Source of the DNA: Rhodothermales bacterium
GTDB taxonomy: Bacteria; Bacteroidota; Rhodothermia; Rhodothermales; BA12
DNA: 64,000 nucleotides
Direction of reading: 5' to 3'
Assembly: GCA_963740755.1 (NCBI GenBank)
Contig: CAVUFJ010000011.1
Span: 80,822-144,821 of the forward strand
The notes under the pieces are model-generated. The model saw only the letters and a program-made list of their open reading frames with translations, had not been told where the DNA came from and ran no database searches. Position 1 is the first letter of the stretch; the number at the start of each line of letters is the position of its first letter. Of this stretch, positions 16,882 to 38,600 are shown piece after piece. The translations under genes were made by a program, and so were the position numbers.

Positions 16882-18141
16882 TCACGCCTCCAAGCGCTTC
16901 ATGATCACGCTCGTGTTGTGCCCGCCGAAGCCGAACGCGTTCGACATCGCCACCCGCACGTCGCGCTGCTGCGGCGCGCCGAACGTGTAGTTGAGGTCGC
17001 ACGCCGGGTCCGGCGTCACGAAGTTGATCGTCGGCGGCACGATGCCGTGGTGGATGGCCAGGATGCTCGCGATGGCCTCGACCGCGCCCGCTGCGCCGAG
17101 CAGGTGGCCCGTCATGCTCTTGGTGGACGAGCAGTTGAGCCGGTACGCGTCCTCGCCGAAGACGGCCTTGATGGCCTTCGTCTCGGCGGCATCGCCGAGG
17201 GGCGTGCTCGTGCCGTGCATGTTGAGGTAGTCCACGTCGGCGGTCGTCAGGCCGGCGTCGCGGAGGGCGCTCTTCATCGCCAGCTTGGCGCCCTTGCCCT
17301 CGGGCTCGGGGGCGGTGAGGTGGTAGGCGTCCGCGCTCGCGCCGAAGCCCGCCACCTCGGCGTAGATCCGCGCGCCGCGCGCCTTGGCGTGCTCATATTC
17401 CTCCAGGATGAGCGCGCCCGCGCCCTCGCCGAGCACGAAGCCGTCGCGCGTGGCGTCGAAGGGCCGCGAGGCCGTTTCGGGGCTGTCGTTGCGCGTCGAG
17501 AGGGCCTTGCAGGCGTTGAAGCCGCCCACGCCGAGTTCGGTCACCGACGCCTCGGAGCCGCCCGTCACCATCACGTCGGCGGAGCCGTGCTGGATGAGCA
17601 GGAAGGCGTCGATGAGGTTGTGGTTGCCGGTGGCGCAGGCGCTCACGGCGCGAGTGGTTGGGGCCGCGCAGCCCGTGCATCATCGAGATCTGCCCCGGCG
17701 CGATGTCGGTGATGAGCATCGGGATGAAGAAGGGCGAGATGCGGCGCGGGCCCTCGGTGAGCAGGATCTGCGTCTGCTGCTGGAAGGTCTGGAAGCCGCC
17801 CTGCCCGGAGCCGAAAACGACGCCGAAGCGGTCGCGCTCGTCTTCCGTGAGCGTGCGCGTGTCGATGCCGGCGTCTTTGAGCGCCTCGTTGGCGACCACG
17901 CAGGCGTACTGCGCAAACGGGTCCATGCGGCGGACGAGCTTGCGGTCGAGCAGGTCTTCGGCGCGGAAGTCTTTGACCTCGCACGCAAACTTGGTCTCGT
18001 ACTGCGTCGTGTCGAAGCGGGTGATCGGCGCGGCGCCGCTTTTGCCGGCGAGGAGCGCGGCCCAGAAGTCGGGCACGGTGTTGCCAATCGGCGTGAGCGC
18101 GCCGAGGCCGGTAATGACGACGCGGCGGGGAGCAGCAGGCA
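16882..18141 (-). CDS. fabF: 3-oxoacyl-ACP synthase II with one frameshift
   Basis: [16 protein letters not shown], active-site [31 protein letters not shown]. Frame break at about 17645. Confidence 0.85.
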
Positions 18142-18272
18142 TAGCAGAAAGGGTGAAGCGGAGCGCGCCGGGGGTGGGGGCCGGCCGTCCCTCTACGCGC
18201 ACACACGCCGCCTGCTCCGGCGCAGGGCCGGACAGAGTAGCGTCCGTCGGGGCGGGGCGCAAACAGAAAGCG

Positions 18273-18316
18273 CGCCTTCCTGAGGGTGCAGGAAGGCGCG
18301 CCCAAAACGCAACCGG
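18273..18316 (-). terminator. Hairpin with a U-rich tail downstream of acpP, possibly an acpP-fabF attenuator
   Basis: Minus strand GCGCGCCTTCCTG-cacccu-CAGGAAGGCGCGC followed by TTTCTGTTTG. Confidence 0.5.
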
Positions 18317-18325
18317 AACGCCGGG

Positions 18326-18565
18326 TCAGGCGGCCGTCTTGCCTTCCAGGTACGACGTAGCGTCGCCGACGGTCGAGATCTTCTCGGCGTCCTCGTCGGG
18401 GATCGTCACGTTGAACTGCTTCTCGAACTCCATGACGAGCTCGACGATGTCGAGCGAGTCGGCGCCGAGGTCGTTCGTGAACGAGGCTTCGGGCTTGATA
18501 TCGGCCTCGTCTACGCCGAGCTTGTCGACGATGATGGCCTTGACTTTTTCTGCGACCTGACTCAT
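18326..18565 (-). CDS. acpP: Acyl carrier protein
   Basis: 79 aa. The DSLD phosphopantetheine site lies in [16 protein letters not shown]. Confidence 0.95.
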
Positions 18566-18801
18566 TGCAAATCGGGGGATGGTGAAACAGCGCGCCGGAG
18601 GATCGGGGCGCGCAGGGTGAGCCGCCCAAACCTACGGCATCGCAGGCGGCATCGCGCAGTTCCCACCCCGCGCCCGGCGTTCGGTGCCCGCGTGGGGTCC
18701 GGATTCTGTGTTAAGTCGGTTACTGCCGGGCTCCGGAGGGGCCATGCGGGGGTTATTCTCACCTGCTGTTCCTCCTCTGGCCCTCAACCCATTCCCGCCG
18801 C

Positions 18802-19993
18802 ATGGCCTACCTCTTCACCTCGGAGTCGGTCTCCGAAGGGCACCCCGACAAGGTCGCCGACCAGATCTCCGACGCCATCCTCGACGCGCTGCTCACGCAG
18901 GACCCGAAAAGCCGCGTGGCGGTCGAGACGCTCGTGACGACGGGCCTCGTGGTGCTCTCGGGCGAGGTGACGACGAATGCCTATGTGGACGTGCAGGAGA
19001 TCGCCCGCGGCGTGATCCGGGAGATCGGCTACACCGACCCCCGCCTCCGCTTCGATGCCGATTCGTGCGGCGTCATCTCGGCCATCCACGGCCAGAGCCC
19101 GGACATCGCGCAGGGCGTCGATGAAGGCGCCGGCCTGCACGAGGAGCAGGGCGCCGGCGACCAGGGCATGATGTTCGGCTACGCGACGACCGAGACGGCC
19201 GAGTTCATGCCGCTCGCGCTCAGCCTCTCGCACAAGCTCGTGCACGAGCTCGCCAAGATCCGCAAGTGGGAGCCGCACCTGATGCCCTACCTCCGCCCGG
19301 ACGCCAAGAGCCAGGTGACGATCGAGTACGACGACGACCGCCGCACCGTGCGCCGCGTCCACACCGTCGTGCTCTCGACGCAGCACGACGACGAGGTGAC
19401 GCTCGAGAAGATCAAGAAGGACGTGATCAAGCACCTGCTCCCGCGCGTGCTCCCGCAGAGCCTCGTGGACGACAACCTGATCCTCCACGTCAACCCGACG
19501 GGCAAGTTCGTCATCGGCGGCCCCCACGGCGACACCGGCCTGACGGGCCGCAAGATCATCGTGGACACCTACGGCGGCAAGGGCGCCCACGGCGGCGGCG
19601 CGTTCTCGGGCAAGGACCCGAGCAAGGTGGACCGCAGCGCCGCCTACGCGGCCCGCTACGTGGCGAAGAACCTCGTGGCGGCGGGCCTCGGCCGAGGAAG
19701 CGCTCGTGCAGGTGGCCTACGCCATCGGCGTGGCCGAGCCGGTGAGCGTGAACGTGAACACCTACGGCACCGGCACGCTCTCCGACGAGGCGCTCGGCGA
19801 ACTCATCCGCGCCGAGTTCGACCTGCGCCCGGCGGCCATCACGCGCACGCTCGACCTGCTCAAGCCGCGCTACCGCCACACGGCCGCCTACGGGCACTTC
19901 GGGCGCGACGGCGAGACGTTCACCTGGGAGCAGCTCGACCGCGTGGAGAGCCTCAAGGACCGCGCCGCCAAGTACAAGGAGCAGGCCGCGTAA
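18802..19993 (+). CDS. metK: S-adenosylmethionine synthetase with one frameshift
   Basis: [24 protein letters not shown]..., [41 protein letters not shown] single extra G at about 19691 joins frames 18802-19690 and 19706-19993. Confidence 0.9.
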
Positions 19994-20179: not shown

Positions 20180-22735
20180 ATGCCCCTTCGCCCAGTTCGT
20201 TGCCCCGCTGCTTGCCGGGGCCCTCGTGCTCGCTGCCTGCACGTCGAGCCGTTCCACCCCGGCTTCCCCGCCGTCCGCCACGCCGCCCAGTGCGGCCGCC
20301 ACAGCTCCCCCGGCCGCAGGGGCCACGCCCCCGGCGGCCGGCACGCCCGCGCGACCGGCAGCGGCTCCGACGGGGCCGAAGCCGTTTGCGGAGACCGTGC
20401 GCGGGATGCGCGCCGACAGCGGACTCGTGACGGTGTACCGCAACGACACCAAGCTGCTCTTCGCGGTCGCCGACACGCTCTTCGGGCGCGACTTGCTCTG
20501 GCTCACGCGCGTGTCCGCCGTGCCCGCCGGGCTGGGCGGCTTCGTGACGCCGGGCGTCAACCTGAACGAGAGCGTCGTGCGCTTCGAGCGGCGCGGCGAC
20601 CGCGTGCTGCTGCGCGAAGTTCAGCTACGACCAGGTGGCCGCCGATTCCCTGCCCGATTGCGCGCGCCGTGGCGCGGGGCCAACTTCGCGCCCGTGCTCG
20701 CCTCGCTGCCCGTGCAGAGCTACGCGCCCGATTCGAGCGTGGTGCTCGACGTGACGGCGCTCTTCGAGAAGGACACCCCCGCCTTTGCCGGGCTCACGGC
20801 CACGCAGCGCACCACCTACCAGGTGCGGCGCCTAGACGAGTCGCGCAGCTTCATCAACACGGCGCGGAGCTACCCGCTCAACGTGGAGGTCAACCACACG
20901 CTCACCTACGACGCCGGGCGCCCGCCGTCCGACGTCGATGCCGGCACGATCTCGATGGAGCTGCAGCAGTCGCTCGTGCTGCTGCCGAAAACGCCCATGC
21001 GGCCCGCGCATCGCGGACGAGCGCGTGGGCTACTTCACCGTCGATCAGATCAACTTCGGCGCCGCCGATCAGCAGGCCGTGCGGCAGCAGTTCATCCGCC
21101 GGTGGCGCCTGGAGCCCAAAGACCCGGCGGCCTACGCCCGGCGCGAACTGACAGAGCCCGTCAAGCCCATCGTCTACTACCTCGACCCGGCCACGCCCGC
21201 CGAGTGGCGCTCGTGCGTGATGCAGGGCGTGAACGACTGGCAGAAGCCGTTCGAAACCGCGGGCTTCAAAAACGCCATCGAGGCGCGCTTGCCCCCCACC
21301 GACGACCCCGACTGGAGCGCCGACGACGTGCGCTACTCGACCGTCCGCTGGGCGGCGAGCCTGACGCGCAACGCGATGGGCCCGAGCGTGAGCGACCCGC
21401 GCACGGGCGAGATCATCGAGTCCGACATCGTGTGGTACCACAACCACCTTCGCTCCTACCGCAACCGGATCATGCTGGAGACGGGCGCCGCCAACCCGCT
21501 CGCCCGCACCCTCCCCATCGACACCGGGGCTCATGTGCGAGGCGATGCGGCAGGTGATTGCCCACGAGATCGGCCACGCGCTCGGCTTTCCGCACAACAT
21601 GGGCGCGAGCAGCGCCTACCCGGTCGACTCGCTCCGTAACCCGTCGTTCGTGCGGCGGATGGGCGTGGCGCCGTCCGTGATGGACTATGCGCGCCAGAAC
21701 TACGTGGCCCAGCCCGGCGACGGCCTTGTGGGCACCGACTTTCTGCGCCAGATCGGGCCGTACGACCACTACGCCGTCAACTGGGGCTACCGCGTGATTC
21801 CCGTCTGCCGCGACGCCCGAGGCCGAGAAGCCGATCCTCCACCACTGGATCCTCGCGCACGCGGGCGACCCGGTGTACCGCTTCAACGGCGGCGGGGGCT
21901 TCGACCCGAGCGCGCAGACCGAGGACATCGGCAGCGACCCGGTGGCCGCGAGCACGCTCGGCATCGCCAACCTGAAGCGCGTGGCGCCGCAGCCTGCTCG
22001 CGTGGACGACGAAGCCGGGCGAGGACTACACGAACCTGACCGAGCTCTACGGCGAACTCGTGGGCCAGTGGCAGCGCTACGTCGGGCACGTGCTCACGCT
22101 CGTGGGCGGGCGTCGTAGAGACGCACAAGACGTCCGATGAAACCGGCAACGTGTACACGCCCGTGCCGGCCGCGCAGCAGCGGGCGGCGATGGCGTTCGC
22201 TGGCGCGCGAGGTGTTCGAGGCGCCCACGTGGCTCACCGACGATGCCGTGCTGGGCCGCATCGAAGCCACCGGCGGGCTCGACCGGATCACCGGCGCGCA
22301 GGCGAACGTGGTGAACAGCCTGCTCTCCACCGCCCGCCTCCAGCGCCTCGCCGACGCCGCGGTCCGTGATGGATTTGCGTATTCCCCCACGAGCTTCTTC
22401 GACGACCTCCGCGCGGGCGTCTGGGGCCGCGGCGCGCCCGACGTGTACCGCCGCGCCGCTCCAGCGCGCCTACGTGGAGCGCCTGACCACGCTCCTCAAC
22501 CCGCCGGACGCGCCCGCCACGGCCTCCCCGATCCCCGGCGCCCCGAGCCCCGCCGCGCAGCAGGCCGCCGTGCTCCGCTCCGACATCCAGCCGCTCGTGC
22601 GCGCCGAACTCGCAGACGCTCCAGCGACGAGCGCCCGCGCCGCCGCCCGCGCCACAAGCGACCGGCTCGTGCGCGCCCACTACGAAGACCTCGCCACAGC
22701 GCGCCGCCCGCGCCCTCGACCCGAACGCGTGATTG
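20180..22735 (+). CDS. Large secreted zinc metalloprotease lipoprotein (metzincin-type HEIGHALGFPH motif), heavily frameshifted; its 3' end abuts the low-GC island
   Basis: Reconstructed start MPFAQFVAPLLAGALVLAAC after removing one extra C at 20184. HEIGHALGFPHNMGASSAYPVDSL...VMDYARQNY. Homology runs through at least seven frames up to about 22735. Confidence 0.7.
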
Positions 22736-24568
22736 CTTCATCACGTCATCTTGTATCGCCTAACCATCTAGAAACATGGATGTAGTAACACAGAGCCTGC
22801 TTGGCGAATTTACTTCAAGCCAGAAGCTTGAAAATCTGGCCCAGTCTGATCAATTTGAGGCGTTTGTAAACTACATCGTTATATCAGACCTATACCCTGA
22901 AGAATTTGATTACAGTGTTGTGTCTACAGGCACGGGTGAGTTTGGTATTGATGGCATAGCAATAATCGTCAATGATTCAATCATAGATATGGCGAGGATC
23001 AGATGGATGATATTATATCGAATGTTCCTGTCATTCAGGCCCATTTTGTGTTTGTTCAGTCGAAAACAAGTGCATCTTTCGATGTTGGAGACATGTCTAA
23101 GTTTTTGTAGGCAGTAGTTGATTTTTTCAAGCAGGAAATATCTTTTAGCCAAACGACAAGATATTGGAGCTCCAGAGGGTCAAGAACAAGCTTTTTAAGA
23201 GCGCATCTAAGTTTGCCAGGGGGCTTCCTAAGATATCTCTATACTACGCCACTACTGGCACATGGAATGATGACCAAAATCTTTGTGCGACTAGAGATTT
23301 ATTTGTCGGTCAACTAAACAACCTTCACATATTTGAGTCGGTTAAGTTTTATCCGCTTGGGGCTAGCAAGGTGCAAAAGCTGTATTTTCAGACAAAGAAT
23401 GCATTCAGGGTGTCGATAAACTTTGCCCAGAATCTTTCACTGCCTGAAATACCTGGGGTCAGAGAGTCGTACATCGGACTCTGCCTGTATCTGAATACAT
23501 GAAAATGATTACAGATGAAGCAGGGAACGTAAGAAGAAGGCTATTTTTTGACAATATTAGGGATTTTCAGGGCGAAACCTCTGTAAATAAATCAATTAAG
23601 GAAACGCTTGTTTCACCAAACAGTATTGAGTTTCCACTGAGGAATAACGGTATTACCATAGTAGCACGCAAGCTCCAGAGGGTTGGGTCTCAGTTTACGT
23701 TAGAGGATTATCAAGTTGTAAATGGTTGTCAAACCAGTCATGTCATAGCGTCCACGGGAAAGAAAGATGATCATGATACCATGATACCCATAAAGATTAT
23801 ATCTACAGAAGACGAGGAGATCACAAGACAGGTGATAATTGCTTCTAACCAACAAAATAAGGTAGATCAGGAGAGTTTTTGGACCCTCGCTCCCATTCAT
23901 AAGTCAATTGAGGTATATTTTGATTCAAAGCCTGGCGACCACAAGCTGCATTACGAGAGGAGGCCAGGTCAATTCAATACATTGAACGGCATAGAAAAGG
24001 TTAGAATAGTTACCAAGGACTCACTATTGAAGGTTTATGCATCTGTATTTCTCGAGCAACCTAACCAGGTTGGTAGGTATTATAAAGACCTAACACCGCT
24101 TATTGGTAAAGAAATATTCTCCCCAGATCACGAGGTGAATTCGTATTATACAGCTGCTATACATAGCTTATAGACTGGAGTTTATGTTTCGCAATAAAAA
24201 AATGGATCCTGAATGGAAGCCTTTTAGATTCCAAATTATGATGGCAACTCGCCTCTTGATAGAGAAGGATTTGAAATTAGAACCTAAAAAAAGAGGTCAA
24301 AGCAATATTGTGCCGCAATAGATGCCGTAATGGTTGGACCCAGAGAAAGCACAAGCCGTTTTTGAGCGAGCAACAAGCTTGATCTCAAAGGCTATATCTC
24401 TGCTTAAGGATCAGGATGCTAAGCTTGACCGACGGACCGCTAAAATGCGAGACATGAGAGACAAACTCAGAGACGTTATATCTAAACAAGACACGCGATG
24501 ATTTTGTGTGTATCAACTAAGTGAATTCTTCACATTTATGCCAATATTGTCCCTCAGACGACGCTAGA
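22732..24568. mobile_element. Horizontally acquired low-GC island (~1.84 kb, roughly 35-40% GC by eye) carrying an abortive-infection gene; no integrase or transposase
   Basis: Abrupt composition change at both ends. Flanked by the metzincin 3' end on the left and a displaced DUF445 3' fragment on the right. Confidence 0.7.
22776..24173 (+). CDS. AIPR-family abortive infection (phage resistance) protein in three frameshifted pieces; it may continue in two further small ORFs to about 24490
   Basis: N-terminus FEAFVNYIVISDLYPEEFDY...GEFGIDGIAIIVND. AIPR-core motifs FFDNIRDFQG...NNGITIVA and QVVNGCQTSHVI. Pieces 22776-23117, 23164-23502 and 23499-24173. Confidence 0.6.
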
Positions 24569-24578
24569 ATCCGAGCGT

Positions 24579-24745
24579 TCACCCGAGCCAGGTGGTCAGC
24601 AGATAGAGGAGCGCGCCGACGAGACCGCCCACCAGCGTGCCGTTGATGCGGATCCACTGCGGACCTTGCCGACGGCGACTTCGATGCGGTCAGGCGACGG
24701 CCTCGGCGGGCCAGTGCTCGATCGTGTCGCGCATGCCCCTGCACG
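24579..24745 (-). pseudogene. Displaced, diverged fragment of a DUF445 gene 3' end (~85% identical to 25438-25610); it keeps the native stop codon
   Basis: Minus-strand translation ...[38 protein letters not shown] against ...[42 protein letters not shown] in the intact gene. Confidence 0.55.
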
Positions 24746-24821
24746 TAGCTCCAGTGTGTCCGGAACTCTCTCCGCCCCGAATTAACGTCGATGAGGCCTC
24801 CGTTTTACACATCCCGGATCG

Positions 24822-25035
24822 ATGCCTGCCGTTTTCGCGTATCGCCCAAATTTCAGGTCGTCATCCCTCGCCGCGTGCGGGAGGCGCTCCGCATCGAGCC
24901 TGGTCAGCAGGTCGAGGTCATCGCGCACGGCGACCGCATCGAACTCATCCCGGTGCGCCCCATCCAGCAGATGCGCGGTTTTCTGACGGGGCTAGACACC
25001 CTGAATTGGGCGGGAGCAAGACCAGGGCGCTATGA
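24822..25035 (+). CDS. vapB: AbrB/SpoVT-type antitoxin (VapB-like), frameshifted near its start
   Basis: VSPKFQVVIPRRVREALRIEPGQQVEVIAHGDRIELIPV swapped-hairpin motif. ATGA overlap with the next gene at 25032. Confidence 0.6.
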
Positions 25036-25460
25036 ACGTCGTCGATTCCTCCGGATGGCTCGAATACTTCGCCGGGAGCGCCCGGGCGGACTTTTTCGCC
25101 CCTGCCATTGAGGACACGGCAGCGCTCGTTGTGCCGGTGGATCACGCTTTATGAGGTGTACAAGCGCGTACGCCAGCAGCGCAGTGAGATTGAAGACGTT
25201 TACAGGCGGTCGGGGAAATGCAGCAAGGCCGTCTTGTCGATCTCGATAGGAGCCTCGCCCTACGGGCCGCCCAACTGAGTCTCGCGCATCGCCTCCCCAT
25301 GGCGGACAGCCTGATCTTGGCGACGGCGCGGGCCCTGGAGGCAGAACTCTGGACCCAAAACGCTCACTTCGAGGGACTCGCCGGGGACGATATCAGCGTA
25401 AAGCGTGAGCCGCAAGCTCGCGCGGACGCCGTGCAGCCGAGCCAGGTGGTGAGCAGGTAG
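25032..25460 (+). CDS. vapC: PIN-domain toxin (VapC-like) with two frameshifts; its 3' end overlaps the DUF445 gene convergently
   Basis: [35 protein letters not shown]...YEVYKRV...[49 protein letters not shown]. Confidence 0.65.
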
Positions 25461-26637
25461 AGGAGGGCGCCGACGAGGCCGCCCACGAGGGTGCCGTTGA
25501 TGCGGATCCACTGGAGGTCTTTGCCGACGGCCACCTCGATGCGGTCCGAGACCGGCTTCAGCGGGCCAGCGCTCGATGGTGTCGCGGATGAGGTCGGGGA
25601 TGCGCTGCCCGTGCTCTTGGATGGCCCACGCGGCGGCGGCGGCCACCTTCTCGTTGACGGCGTGCTGGAACGCCTCGTCTTCGAGCATCGAGCGGCCGAA
25701 CTCCACGCCGCGCGCTTCGAGAAAGCCGAAGATGGCCGAGTCCTCGTCGTGCAGGTCGCGCACGAGAAAGCCCTTGAAGTCGCCCCAGCGCTCGACGGCG
25801 AAGTCGCGCAGGGCCGGGTTTTCGAGCACGCGGTCGCGGAGGGCGTCCACCTTGGCCTGCATGGCCGGGTCGTGGTCGAGGCGCTCCAGGAATTCCTGCA
25901 CGCGCTCGTGGATGCGCACGCGCAGCGGGTTCTCGCGGTCGGAGAGCATCGCCTGGATCGTGGTGTCGATCTTGCCCATCACGGCGTCGGTGACGAGGTC
26001 GGCGGCGAAGACGGCGATGAGGCTCGGCATCTGCGCGCGCACGACGTCGTAGATGGCGTCGCGGTTGGCGGCGGCCACGCTCGCGGCGCCCTGGAGCACC
26101 TCGTCGAGCAGGTCTTCGTGCTGCCCGTCGCGCGCGAGGCCGAGGAGCAGGTCGGAGAGCTTGGGCGCCAGGGCGACCTCCCGGAGGCGCGGGATCACCT
26201 CGCGGTCCGAGAACTCGCGGATGCGCCCGTCCGAGAGGCCGTCCACCGCCCCTTCGATCATCCCCACGATGCGCGTGCGCAGGCTTCGCACGTGCCCCGG
26301 CGTTTCGAGCCAGCGCCCGGCGATCTCGGCGAAGTTGATCCGCTCGATGCGCGGCAGCACGTTCTCGGGCGTCAGAAACTGCCCGCCCGACGAAGTTGCC
26401 GAGCGCGTTGCCGAGGCGGGCCTTGCGCTCGGGGATGATGGCCGTGTGGGGGATCGGCACGCCGAGCGGGTGCCGGAAGAGCGCCGTGACGGCGAACCAG
26501 TCGGCGAGGGCGCCCACCATGGAGGCCTCGAAGAAGGCGGCGAAGAGGCCCGTCCAGAAGTTGCGGGGCAGGGCAAAGTGGCACACGAGAAAGCCCACCG
26601 CCGCCGCCACGAGAAACCCGAGCGCGATGCGCTTCAT
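25438..26637 (-). CDS. DUF445-family membrane protein (YjiN-like) with at least two frameshifts; the stop codon is missing, so the ORF reads about 23 codons into antisense vapC
   Basis: [24 protein letters not shown]...[20 protein letters not shown]...[10 protein letters not shown]. One extra G at 26393. ...[28 protein letters not shown] with no stop after it. Confidence 0.6.
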
Positions 26638-26980
26638 CCGGCGGAGCGCCGCGCGCTTGTCCTGCTCGTCGCGCAGCTGGGGGAGCGGCGGCTGCCATGC
26701 CGGTCCGTTGCCGACAGCGCGGCACGGGCTCCGGCGCGGGGGGCGGGGCCGTGCGCGCGTGGGCGTACGTCGCGGGCGGCAGGGCCAGCGGGGCGACAGG
26801 CAGGGCGCCGGCCGGGGCGTCGGGCAGCGCTGTGGGGGTGAGCGGGGGCTCCATAGGGGTCGGGACGGCCTTGCAGGATTCGCGGCGCGGCAGGCGTTTG
26901 TTTCGGGCAGACGGAAGGGGTACATCCGTGGACCCCGGCGCCGAGGCCTGTTGTAGCAGCCCGGTCTGCCTTGCCCTGCC

Positions 26981-36368: not shown

Positions 36369-38042
36369 GTGTCCGACCAGAAAGTCATCTTCTCGATGCG
36401 CGGCGTCACCAAGACGCACAAGAACGGCAAGACCGTCCTCCGCGACATCTGGCTCTCCTTCTACTACGGCGCCAAGATCGGCGTGCTCGGCCTCAACGGG
36501 GCCGGCAAGTCTACCCTCCTCAAGATCATCGCGGGCGAGGACAAAGACTTTCTGGGGCACGTCGAAGTGCTGCAGAAGGGCATCACCTTCGGGATGCTCC
36601 ACCAGGAGCCCAACCTCGACCCCGCCCGGACGGTCCGCGAGATCGTCGAGGAAGGCGTGGCCGAGCAGGCGCAGATCCTCAAGGACTACGAGGCCATCAA
36701 CGCCCAGTTTGCCGACCCCGACGCCGACTTCGACGCGCTCATGGCCCGGCAGGCCAAGCTGCAGGACGACATCGACCGCCTCGGCCTCTGGGACCTCGAC
36801 GCGCAGCTCGAACAGGCGATGGACGCCCTCCGCACGCCCCCCGGCGACGCCGTGATCGGCACCCTCTCGGGTGGCGAGAAGCGCCGCGTGGCCCTCGTGC
36901 GCCTGCTCCTCCAGAAGCCCGACGTGCTCCTGCTCGACGAGCCGACAAACCACCTCGACGCCGAGTCGGTCGCGTGGCTGGAGCAGTTTCTCGCCAAGTA
37001 CCCCGGCACCGTCATCGCCGTCACGCACGACCGCTACTTCCTCGACAACGTCGCCGGCTGGATCCTGGAGCTCGACCGGGGCTCGGGCATCCCGTTCGAG
37101 GGCAACTACTCGTCGTGGCTGGAGCAGAAGAGTGCCCGGCTCGCGCTCGAGGAGAAGCAGCAGAGCAAGCAGCAGAAGGCGCTCCAGGAAGAGCTGGAGT
37201 GGGTGCGGCAGAGCCCGAAGGGACGCCACGCCAAGAGCAAGGCGCGCATTGCCAACTACGAGAAGCTCGTCGAGCAGCAGCAGCACAAGCGCGACGACGA
37301 GATGGAGATCCCCATCCCGACCGGCCCGCGCCTCGGCAACCTCGTCATCAACGCCGACGCGCTCACGAAGGCCTACGGCGACAAGCTGCTCTTCGAAGAC
37401 CTGACGTTCTCGCTGCCCCCCGGCGGCATCGTCGGCATCGTGGGCCCCAACGGCGCCGGCAAGACGACGCTCTTCCGCATGATCACGGGCGCCGCCGAGC
37501 CCGACGGGGGCACCATCAAGGTGGGCGAGACCGTCAAGCTCGGCTACGTGGACCAGAACCGCCCGCTCGACCCGGAGAAGACCATCTGGCAGGAGATCGC
37601 CGACGGAGCCGACTTCATCAAGGTGGGCGGGCGCGACATGCAGAGCCGCGCGTGGGTGGGCAAGTTCGGCTTCGGCGGCGCGGATCAGCAGAAGAAGGTG
37701 ACCGAGCTCTCGGGCGGCGAGCGCAACCGCGTCCACCTCGCCAAGGTGCTCCGCGAGGGCGCCAACGTGCTCCTGCTCGACGAGCCCACGAACGACCTCG
37801 ACGTGAACACGCTCCGCGCGCTCGAAGAGGCGCTCCAGGACTTTGCCGGCTGCGCCGTCGTGATCTCCCACGACCGCTGGTTCCTCGACCGCGTGGCCAC
37901 CCACATCCTCGCCTTCGAGGGCAACTCGGAGGTGGTGTGGTTCGACGGCAACTACCGCCTCTACGAGGAAGACTACCACAAGCGCAAGGGCATCGACGCC
38001 GAGCGCCCGCACCGCCTCACCTACCGCAAGCTCACGCGGTAA
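36369..38042 (+). CDS. ettA: Energy-dependent translational throttle protein (ABC-F ATPase)
   Basis: Two ABC cassettes (GLNGAGKST; GPNGAGKTT), two signature motifs [11 protein letters not shown] and [11 protein letters not shown]. 557 aa, intact. Confidence 0.9.
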
Positions 38043-38062
38043 CGCCATCCCCCGACGCGCTG

Positions 38063-38119
38063 CGCGCCGTCGCCCTCTTCCGCGGGAAAGGGCGCCTCAT
38101 CAACACTCCCCTTCCCGCA
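38063..38119 (+). terminator. Long imperfect hairpin downstream of ettA, with no U-tract
   Basis: GCCCTCTTCCGCGGGAA...TTCCCGCAGAAGAGGGC, a 17-bp stem with one mismatch. Confidence 0.3.
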
Positions 38120-38198
38120 GAAGAGGGCGGATTCGAGTCGTTCAGGCGAAGAATCCGGGGGTGGACGCAGCGTTGCGCACGGACAACCGTCACGCGCC

Positions 38199-38435
38199 AT
38201 GCACGTCGTTTCGCTCGATGAAGCCGGTGAGCACCTTGACGGCCTGATCGACGAGGCACTCCAAGGAAACGTGGTCATCATCAGACGCGATGATGGCTTC
38301 GTGGTACAGCTCGTGCCGGTAATCGAGCGCGATGCTACAGAGGATCTGATACCAGATCCGGCCGATGAGTACGGGAAGGTCCCCTCGATCATTGATGATG
38401 GATCATGGCCAGAGAGCACATCTGGGCGTCTCTGA
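38199..38435 (+). CDS. Orphan Phd/YefM-like antitoxin; its 3' third is encoded by repeat R3 and no toxin gene follows
   Basis: MHVVSLDEAGEHLDGLIDEALQGNVVIIRRDDGFVVQLVPV resembles Phd/YefM N-termini. Downstream ...DLIPDPADEYGKVPSIIDDGSW is the translated repeat. Confidence 0.35.
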   Translation: MHVVSLDEAGEHLDGLIDEALQGNVVIIRRDDGFVVQLVPVIERDATEDLIPDPADEYGKVPSIIDDGSWPESTSGRL

Positions 38436-38500
38436 CCATGATCAATGATCCGTGATCAACCCGGTGATCCCTGACCAAGCTACCGGAGTTGGTATGACAA
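38343..38500. repeat. R3 copy of the GGTCAGAGA / GATC-rich repeat family, inverse orientation
   Basis: gatctgataccagatccgg...gatcatggccagagagcacatctgggcgtctctgaccatgatcaatgatccgtgatcaacccggtgatcc...accggagttggtatga. Confidence 0.7.
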
Positions 38501-38600
38501 GGCATGGGCGCACAAAGGATCCGAAAGGAAGTGGCTAAAAGCGGCAGGGGAGGGCGCTGAGCGCTGTATCCTTGCGCGTTCGCTCACCCTTTGCCTGTCC

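Follow-up and report, generated by a model that had tools for sequence, protein, structure and literature searches.

The DNA stretch analysed here (the window) comprises 64,000 nucleotides of a contig of a Rhodothermales bacterium (CAVUFJ010000011.1), and its genes are those of a Rhodothermales-like host. Positions 22733-24555 form an island of low guanine plus cytosine (GC) content, which in all likelihood is a cassette of one anti-phage gene (AIPR/AbiU family) that was acquired horizontally and whose composition is unameliorated, located between the stop codons of two convergent genes encoding a metalloprotease and a DUF445 protein. An earlier note on this DNA had proposed an acquired low-GC island carrying one AIPR gene and no mobility genes, and this central reading is supported by the results described below. 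The case is one of ordinary horizontal transfer of a known type of anti-phage gene.

The change in composition was abrupt. The GC profile fell from 0.72-0.78 to 0.37-0.42 over approximately 22740-24555 and recovered afterwards. The segment 22732-24568, described beforehand as a low-GC region in a genome of about 70% GC, had a GC of 0.405 versus 0.706 for the 64 kb overall. The 300-bp windows outside the island (n = 408) showed a mean GC of 0.715, with a standard deviation of 0.039 and a minimum of 0.553, while 10 of the 10 inside it had a GC of 0.42 or less and lay at least 7.6 standard deviations below that mean (z ≤ -7.6). It was the sole stretch of such composition in the window, since elsewhere the GC was never lower than 0.55. 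The GC at third codon positions (GC3) was 0.41 in the island gene versus 0.93-0.96 in host genes. Considering how far both values are from those of the host, the DNA is completely unameliorated, and the recent transfer that had been proposed from composition stands. The element was delimited as follows.

22733..24555, no strand: low-GC island, 1.82 kb, about 40% GC, delimited by the GC profile, z-scores and absence of similarity to L095 (the closest relative found, described below).

The island is made up of a leader of 43 nt, the AIPR gene and a trailer of about 55 nt, and is too small for a second gene. No integrase or transposase was found, the island being filled by its single gene and the genes within 10 kb on either side being housekeeping genes (AccA, a GT2 glycosyltransferase, FabF, MetK, a transpeptidase-fold protein, a DPP-IV-like peptidase, an alpha/beta hydrolase and a Band 7 protein). 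A tRNA scan of the whole 64 kb detected none, so that the description of the island as a bare acquisition, with neither mobility gene nor tRNA, was borne out. The Rfam scan of the window at gathering thresholds gave no riboswitch or other RNA family, and neither direct or inverted terminal repeats nor a target-site duplication exceeded the shuffle expectation at the ends of the island.

The gene and the parts of its product were located at the following positions.

22776..24501, plus strand: AIPR/AbiU-family gene, with six frame switches and one TAG as deposited, established by Pfam, PADLOC and a homologue frame map.
22776..23480, plus strand: N-terminal half, predicted FokI/MspJI-like PD-(D/E)xK nuclease domain.
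22938-22940 (E55), 22950-22952 (D59) and 23057-23065 (Q95-x-K97), plus strand: invariant residues of the nuclease half.
23544..24290, plus strand: AIPR core (the Pfam domain), putatively ParB/Srx-like, with the motifs FFDNIRDF, RNNGxT and QxVNGCQTSH.

The plus-strand open reading frames (ORFs) 22776-23117, 23164-23502, 23499-24173, 24184-24321 and 24334-24501 were fragments of a single gene, and once bridged they joined into one protein of 575-583 amino acids (aa), as had been anticipated. The frame map was drawn against the homologues P0002 and P0009, and homologue-guided tblastn placed the switches at approximately 22990, 23155, 23481, 24160, 24295 (a run of seven A) and 24335. An in-frame TAG was located at 23108-23110, where the homologues carry Q or H. 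The search of the frame-corrected translation with the AIPR profile, suggested in the earlier note as a check, gave 157.2 bits for the bridged protein (PF10592, E = 1e-45, cut-off 25, profile positions 1-274 of 308); the intact 224-aa ORF by itself reached 152 bits. With the PADLOC AbiU profile (PDLC02357) the match was of 385.8 bits (E = 1.1e-115) and covered residues 2-578 on profile positions 3-535 of 537. All the AIPR motifs quoted beforehand were present. In an alignment of 49 sequences of the family, the invariant columns (more than 100) were all retained in the window copy, which had no deletions; among the residues and motifs kept were E55, D59, Q95-x-K97, FFDNIRDF, RNNGxT and QxVNGCQTSH.

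The structure model of the homologue P0002 matched FokI-like PD-(D/E)xK nuclease and ParB/Srx-like folds, and E55, D59, Q95 and K97, besides being invariant, were on predicted strands. The N-terminal domain is thus predicted to have a restriction-endonuclease-like fold of the PD-(D/E)xK superfamily, and predictions in the literature agree with the fold matches of the model. A Foldseek comparison with the PDB yielded no significant match, and searching the PDB sequences by profile yielded none. We infer that the AIPR protein would be a stand-alone defence nuclease of three parts: an N-terminal nuclease of the FokI/MspJI type, the ParB/Srx-like AIPR core, which probably binds nucleotide or DNA in a sensor or switch role, and a C-terminal domain that is helical. 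If it acts like AbiU of lactococci, it should hamper an early nucleic-acid step of phage development, with delayed transcription, and do so without a partner. With regard to its expression, the AIPR start lies 43 nt past the metalloprotease stop codon on the same strand, and the promoter and terminator scan, whose single finding was a weak hairpin at the stop of the metalloprotease, showed no promoter-like site for the gene; the gene may depend on transcriptional read-through. The hairpin, of 7 bp (GCGTGAT-TGCTTC-ATCACGT), is at 22727-22746 and spans both that stop and the island junction.

Considering that the gene is interrupted as deposited, the possibility must be weighed that it is a dead relic, its frameshifts and its TAG being real and the copy a decaying pseudogene without present function. 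The six frame switches and the stop codon at a position of Q or H speak for this, as does the density of 3.5 switches per kb, well over the figure of about 0.6 per kb for the whole window (about 36 frameshifts predicted in the 64 kb by a GC3-phase Viterbi segmentation). The adjacent native metalloprotease, however, is interrupted to the same degree: ungapped tblastn with the homologue P0122 resolved it into 11 frame pieces with 10 switches along 2.55 kb (3.9 per kb), while its L095 orthologue is uninterrupted across the 2.3 kb present there and the alignment of the two displays scattered 1-nt gaps. The essential gene metK (18802-19993) is also split, within its C-terminal domain with the switch at approximately 19690, and so are vapC and the DUF445 gene. 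The frameshifted DUF445 ORF of the window is matched by an identical protein in NCBI/ENA (P0250), which places the errors in the deposited assembly; this assembly appears to be rich in indels and was probably obtained from long reads. As the native neighbours are equally dense in frameshifts, those of the AIPR gene reflect assembly quality and are not evidence of decay, and the six of them are most likely assembly errors. The frameshifts reported beforehand in the island ORFs are therefore present, although the meaning to be given to them had to be corrected. The TAG, a substitution and no indel, is the sole hint of real inactivation, and a change of CAG to TAG takes a single base error in an AT-rich gene. 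Taking into account also the retention of all the invariant residues of the family and the lack of deletions, we regard the dead relic as unlikely.

The left border of the island was found to be sharp. It is formed by the following gene.

20190..22732, plus strand: native Zn-metalloprotease (DUF5118/DUF5117/DUF4953 'met-zincin'), left border of the variable interval, established by homologues, tblastn and blastn.

The homologues of this metalloprotease are 74% identical to it and carry PF17162, PF17148 and PF16313. Its natural stop codon is the TGA at 22730-22732, and the island begins directly after it, with the edge at 22732/22733. It had been stated that the final codons of this gene run into the AT-rich DNA, but that apparent extension was an artefact of a 1-nt indel near 22697: the last frame piece, 22697-22729, fits the C-terminus of the homologues (...QRAARALDPNA* versus ...QRIARALDPKA*).

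The closest relative found, L095, is a JGI metagenome contig of 70% GC which was reached through a search with the DUF445 protein. Its metalloprotease is 84.2% identical at the nucleotide level and convergent with DUF445, as in the window, and by blastn this homology stops exactly at 22732. Between the stop codons of the two L095 genes there are 7.7 kb of cargo, none of it with a counterpart in the window (FMN reductase, a 549-aa protein, YbjQ, an M28 peptidase, a SnoaL-like protein, a HEPN/nucleotidyltransferase pair, a HicB-like ORF and a DUF4238 protein), and neither AIPR nor vapBC is present in that interval. Since L095 holds different cargo between the same two core genes, the interval is a variable hotspot, and in this sense, with the cargo wholly different in the two genomes, the hot-spot proposed for the site was confirmed. 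Presence of the segment in synteny in all relatives, which had been named as the sign of an ancestral origin, was not observed, as L095, the only close relative found, is without it. Scanning the GTDB representatives with DUF445 brought up a single relative, of 69% (L009), in which synteny breaks at the 3′ end of DUF445, and two contigs with metalloprotease homologues of 74% and 68% (L089 and L090) showed no synteny; among these four relatives no empty site was found. Within the L095 cargo, the segment next to the 3′ end of the metalloprotease (L095:6567-9022) had a GC of 0.59-0.64 versus 0.70 and holds the HEPN/nucleotidyltransferase pair, the HicB-like ORF (58 aa) and the DUF4238 protein. 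Only the nucleotidyltransferase gave PADLOC matches, which were weak and to the candidate system PDC-S09.

The closest database proteins were 569-583 aa long, with 74-77% identity and 45-57% GC, and came from metagenomes and Proteobacteria; the close homologues with a name belong to Bradyrhizobium, Acuticoccus, Burkholderia, Methylobacterium and Chlorobaculum. No donor was recognized in a database of 5.8 billion proteins, nor in JGI metagenome contigs, where one locus reached 74%. IMG/VR viral contigs gave no match. Plasmids searched by blastn provided no donor but one match of 66% in Caballeronia, and phages searched by tblastn provided none, with identities of 34% or less. The low-GC Bacteroidota or Firmicutes donor that had been envisaged is consequently unsupported, the named closest homologues being of Proteobacteria and Chlorobi and at most 77% identical. 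In every context examined, the GC of the homologous gene was below that of its surroundings, and at two loci the homologue was a solitary low-GC gene. The loci were the following.

Acuticoccus contig: gene of 45.5% GC in 71%, solitary, adjoining a truncated MmeI-like gene.
Second locus: gene of 44.5% GC in a background of about 59%.
Third locus: gene of 50% GC in a background of 62%.
Fourth locus: gene of 47% GC in a background of 52-55%, adjoining IS elements and toxin-antitoxin (TA) genes.
Further loci: genes of 56-57% GC in a background of 56-62%, adjoining integrases.

No conserved non-coding ends were detected among the homologous loci. This AIPR subfamily behaves as an often-transferred accessory gene. 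In the Acuticoccus sp. contig (L092:7750-10000) the homologue, 67% identical, occupies an islet of about 2.2 kb without a mobility gene, and the islet adjoins a 380-aa protein with the N-terminal MmeI domains only, perhaps a truncated restriction-modification (R-M) enzyme.

On the right side, the island is followed by three features.

24572..24738, minus strand: 5′-truncated DUF445 3′ fragment, last 53 codons or so, with its own TGA at 24579-24581 (Pfam DUF445).
24791..25460, plus strand: vapBC toxin-antitoxin module, AbrB/MazE-type antitoxin and PIN toxin, GC 63%, vapC frameshifted.
25364..26760 (upper coordinate approximate), minus strand: resident DUF445 gene (YjiN-like), right border of the variable interval (Pfam DUF445, E = 1.7e-96).

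The vapBC module announced beside the island was verified by profile matches, with PF04014 (E = 1.6e-11) and TIGR01439 (E = 7.5e-13) for VapB and PIN (E = 2.5e-15) for the bridged VapC. The resident DUF445 gene was 87.0% identical to L095 across 25437-26712 (blastn), and this homology stops at 25437, at the junction with vapBC. At the stop position the resident copy has TGC, the fragment TGA and L095 TAA; by the change of TGA to TGC the resident ORF is extended by 23 codons (25364-25440, minus strand), antisense to the 3′ end of vapC.

The DUF445 fragment, of about 160 nt, matched profile positions 320-367 of 368 (E = 2e-15), and its existence, as well as its position beside the island, agreed with the earlier note. 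Its supposed origin as a displaced end of the native gene did not hold. It differs from the resident gene at 17 nt, 15 of which are at the third codon position, and 13 of the 17 changed codons are synonymous, which indicates that the two copies diverged as functional genes and not through degeneration at the present site. When the three sequences were aligned, identity was 90.4% between the resident copy and L095, while the fragment was 84.7% and 85.3% identical to them, respectively, and had 15 unique sites, compared with 7 for each of the others. The fragment is thus an outgroup to the resident copy plus L095, that is, foreign and derived from a third related lineage. The outgroup position and the synonymous divergence rule out an in-situ duplicate as well as a displaced native end. 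The intact end of the fragment, with the stop codon and about 20 nt of flank, borders the AIPR island, whereas the truncated end borders vapB.

It is possible, and we propose it tentatively as the simplest reading, that AIPR and the 160 nt of DUF445 entered together, as about 2.0 kb, from a related Rhodothermales lineage with AIPR in the same interval. The segment 22733-24738 would then have arrived as a single contiguous block from a lineage in which AIPR was already downstream of its own DUF445 gene, and its entry would have been through recombination, homologous or illegitimate, without the participation of a mobile element; vapBC would be an accessory module of that interval distinct from this block. 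If this were true, a bare defence gene could spread among relatives without a mobile element, the DUF445 piece would represent a 'flank fossil' left from an earlier host, and the repeatedly lower GC of the subfamily relative to its hosts (55-71% GC), together with its solitary occurrence at two loci, would be explained.

The two DUF445 3′ ends admit another interpretation, which we judge improbable, namely that AIPR and vapBC are remnants of one or two integrase-borne islands inserted site-specifically at the 3′ end of DUF445, the two copies being attL and attR and the integrase having been lost since. A direct repeat of about 160 nt does flank vapBC (24576-24735 and 25430-25590, 81-90% identity), tyrosine integrases adjoin some of the AIPR homologues, and TA modules often outlast the islands that carried them. 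Nevertheless, AIPR lies outside the repeat pair, with neither a third att copy nor a terminal repeat at 22733, and only 690 bp separate the repeats. Such an insertion is expected to displace the native end as a fragment, and here it is the fragment that is foreign and the copy attached to the gene that is native; an integrase remnant is not visible either. Because of the location of AIPR outside the repeats, the foreign fragment and the missing integrase remnant, this model fits less well than import of AIPR and the DUF445 fragment as one block.

That the island is an artefact, be it a chimeric join or contaminant DNA in the contig of a metagenome-assembled genome, is highly improbable even with a visibly error-prone assembly and a totally foreign composition, given that the flanks are host DNA collinear with L095 and the insert lies exactly between two stop codons, that a chimera requires two precise joins, that other high-GC contigs also contain a solitary low-GC member of the family, and that the indel density in the island resembles that of the flanks.

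Several observations count against the acquisition of a working defence gene. Along the metalloprotease, the sliding identity to L095 gave no sign of a mosaic boundary, which would have been proof of a homologous crossover. L095 is the one reasonably close relative and is filled with other cargo instead of offering an empty site, and loss of AIPR in it is formally conceivable. The best identity in the protein database was 77%, with no near-identical copy. The structure was modelled on the homologue P0002, 77% identical, and not on the window protein. In its deposited form the gene lacks an intact ORF, and given that its TAG is a substitution while the neighbours show indel errors only, the copy may be dead.

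With these points taken into account, the locus adds one more AIPR/AbiU-family defence gene, from a poorly sampled high-GC Rhodothermales-like lineage, and identifies a small variable hotspot between the metalloprotease and DUF445 genes. The DUF445 fragment, being xenologous, exemplifies how the remnant of a flank may point back to the host that a transferred gene had before. The practical use of the finding lies mainly in a caution, as both the apparent pseudogenisation and the apparent upstream fusion were products of an indel-rich assembly; since the deposited sequence is full of 1-nt indels, pseudogene or gene-fusion readings there should be distrusted. The current understanding of defence islands and of the AIPR family is unchanged by the finding. 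Elsewhere in the window, the second-lowest GC (0.55-0.57) was at 38042-38593, with a 78-aa ORF at 38199-38435 on the plus strand (MHVVSLDEAGEHLDGLIDEALQGNVVIIRRDDGFVVQLVPV...) which, by eye only, resembles a Phd/YefM-type antitoxin; a partner toxin is not obvious. Upstream of metK there are about 630 nt without coding signal (18129-18759).

By comparison with a classical integrative genomic island, 22733-24555 shares the atypical GC (0.40 versus 0.71) and is a segment not found at the syntenic site of L095, but it has no integrase or transposase, no tRNA or att target and no flanking direct repeats. In relation to the defence or accessory hotspots described between core genes, the flanks are likewise conserved in L095 while the cargo differs, and TA modules occur in both genomes; the window interval is different in being only 2.7 kb long and devoid of integrase, tRNA and repeats, with two genomes compared. 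The type IV restriction enzymes GmrSD and BrxU, and DndB, combine a ParB/Srx-like DUF262 domain with a nuclease or HEPN domain. The protein of the window differs from them in that its predicted nuclease is an N-terminal PD-(D/E)xK domain and not a C-terminal HNH/DUF1524 domain, and the profile search gave no sequence-level match to DUF262 in the bridged protein. With the Pfam AIPR/COG1479 genes of prophages and satellites it has the same domain in common (the Fels-2 gene shows 30.6% identity over 97% of the protein), and both are lone accessory genes in variable hotspots; the window copy is outside a prophage or satellite and has no R-M link. The AbiU1/AIPR/COG1479 group has been described as carrying a ParB-superfamily domain that is often fused to other nucleases (PMC3632139), and AbiU falls in the PD-(D/E)XK superfamily near Upx (PMC13099982). 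AbiUi by itself is sufficient for resistance, slows the onset of phage transcription and is FokI-like in its AlphaFold model; a phage-resistance phenotype is known for lactococcal AbiU only (PMC13064643). The window copy differs from the AbiU (AbiUi/AbiU1) of Lactococcus lactis in being chromosomal in a host of 70% GC, in having no AbiUii or HEPN neighbour and in being interrupted as deposited. Meanwhile, it resembles it in its full-length profile match, its similar size (about 575 aa) and its single-gene organization, and in both proteins a FokI-like PD-(D/E)xK nuclease is predicted.

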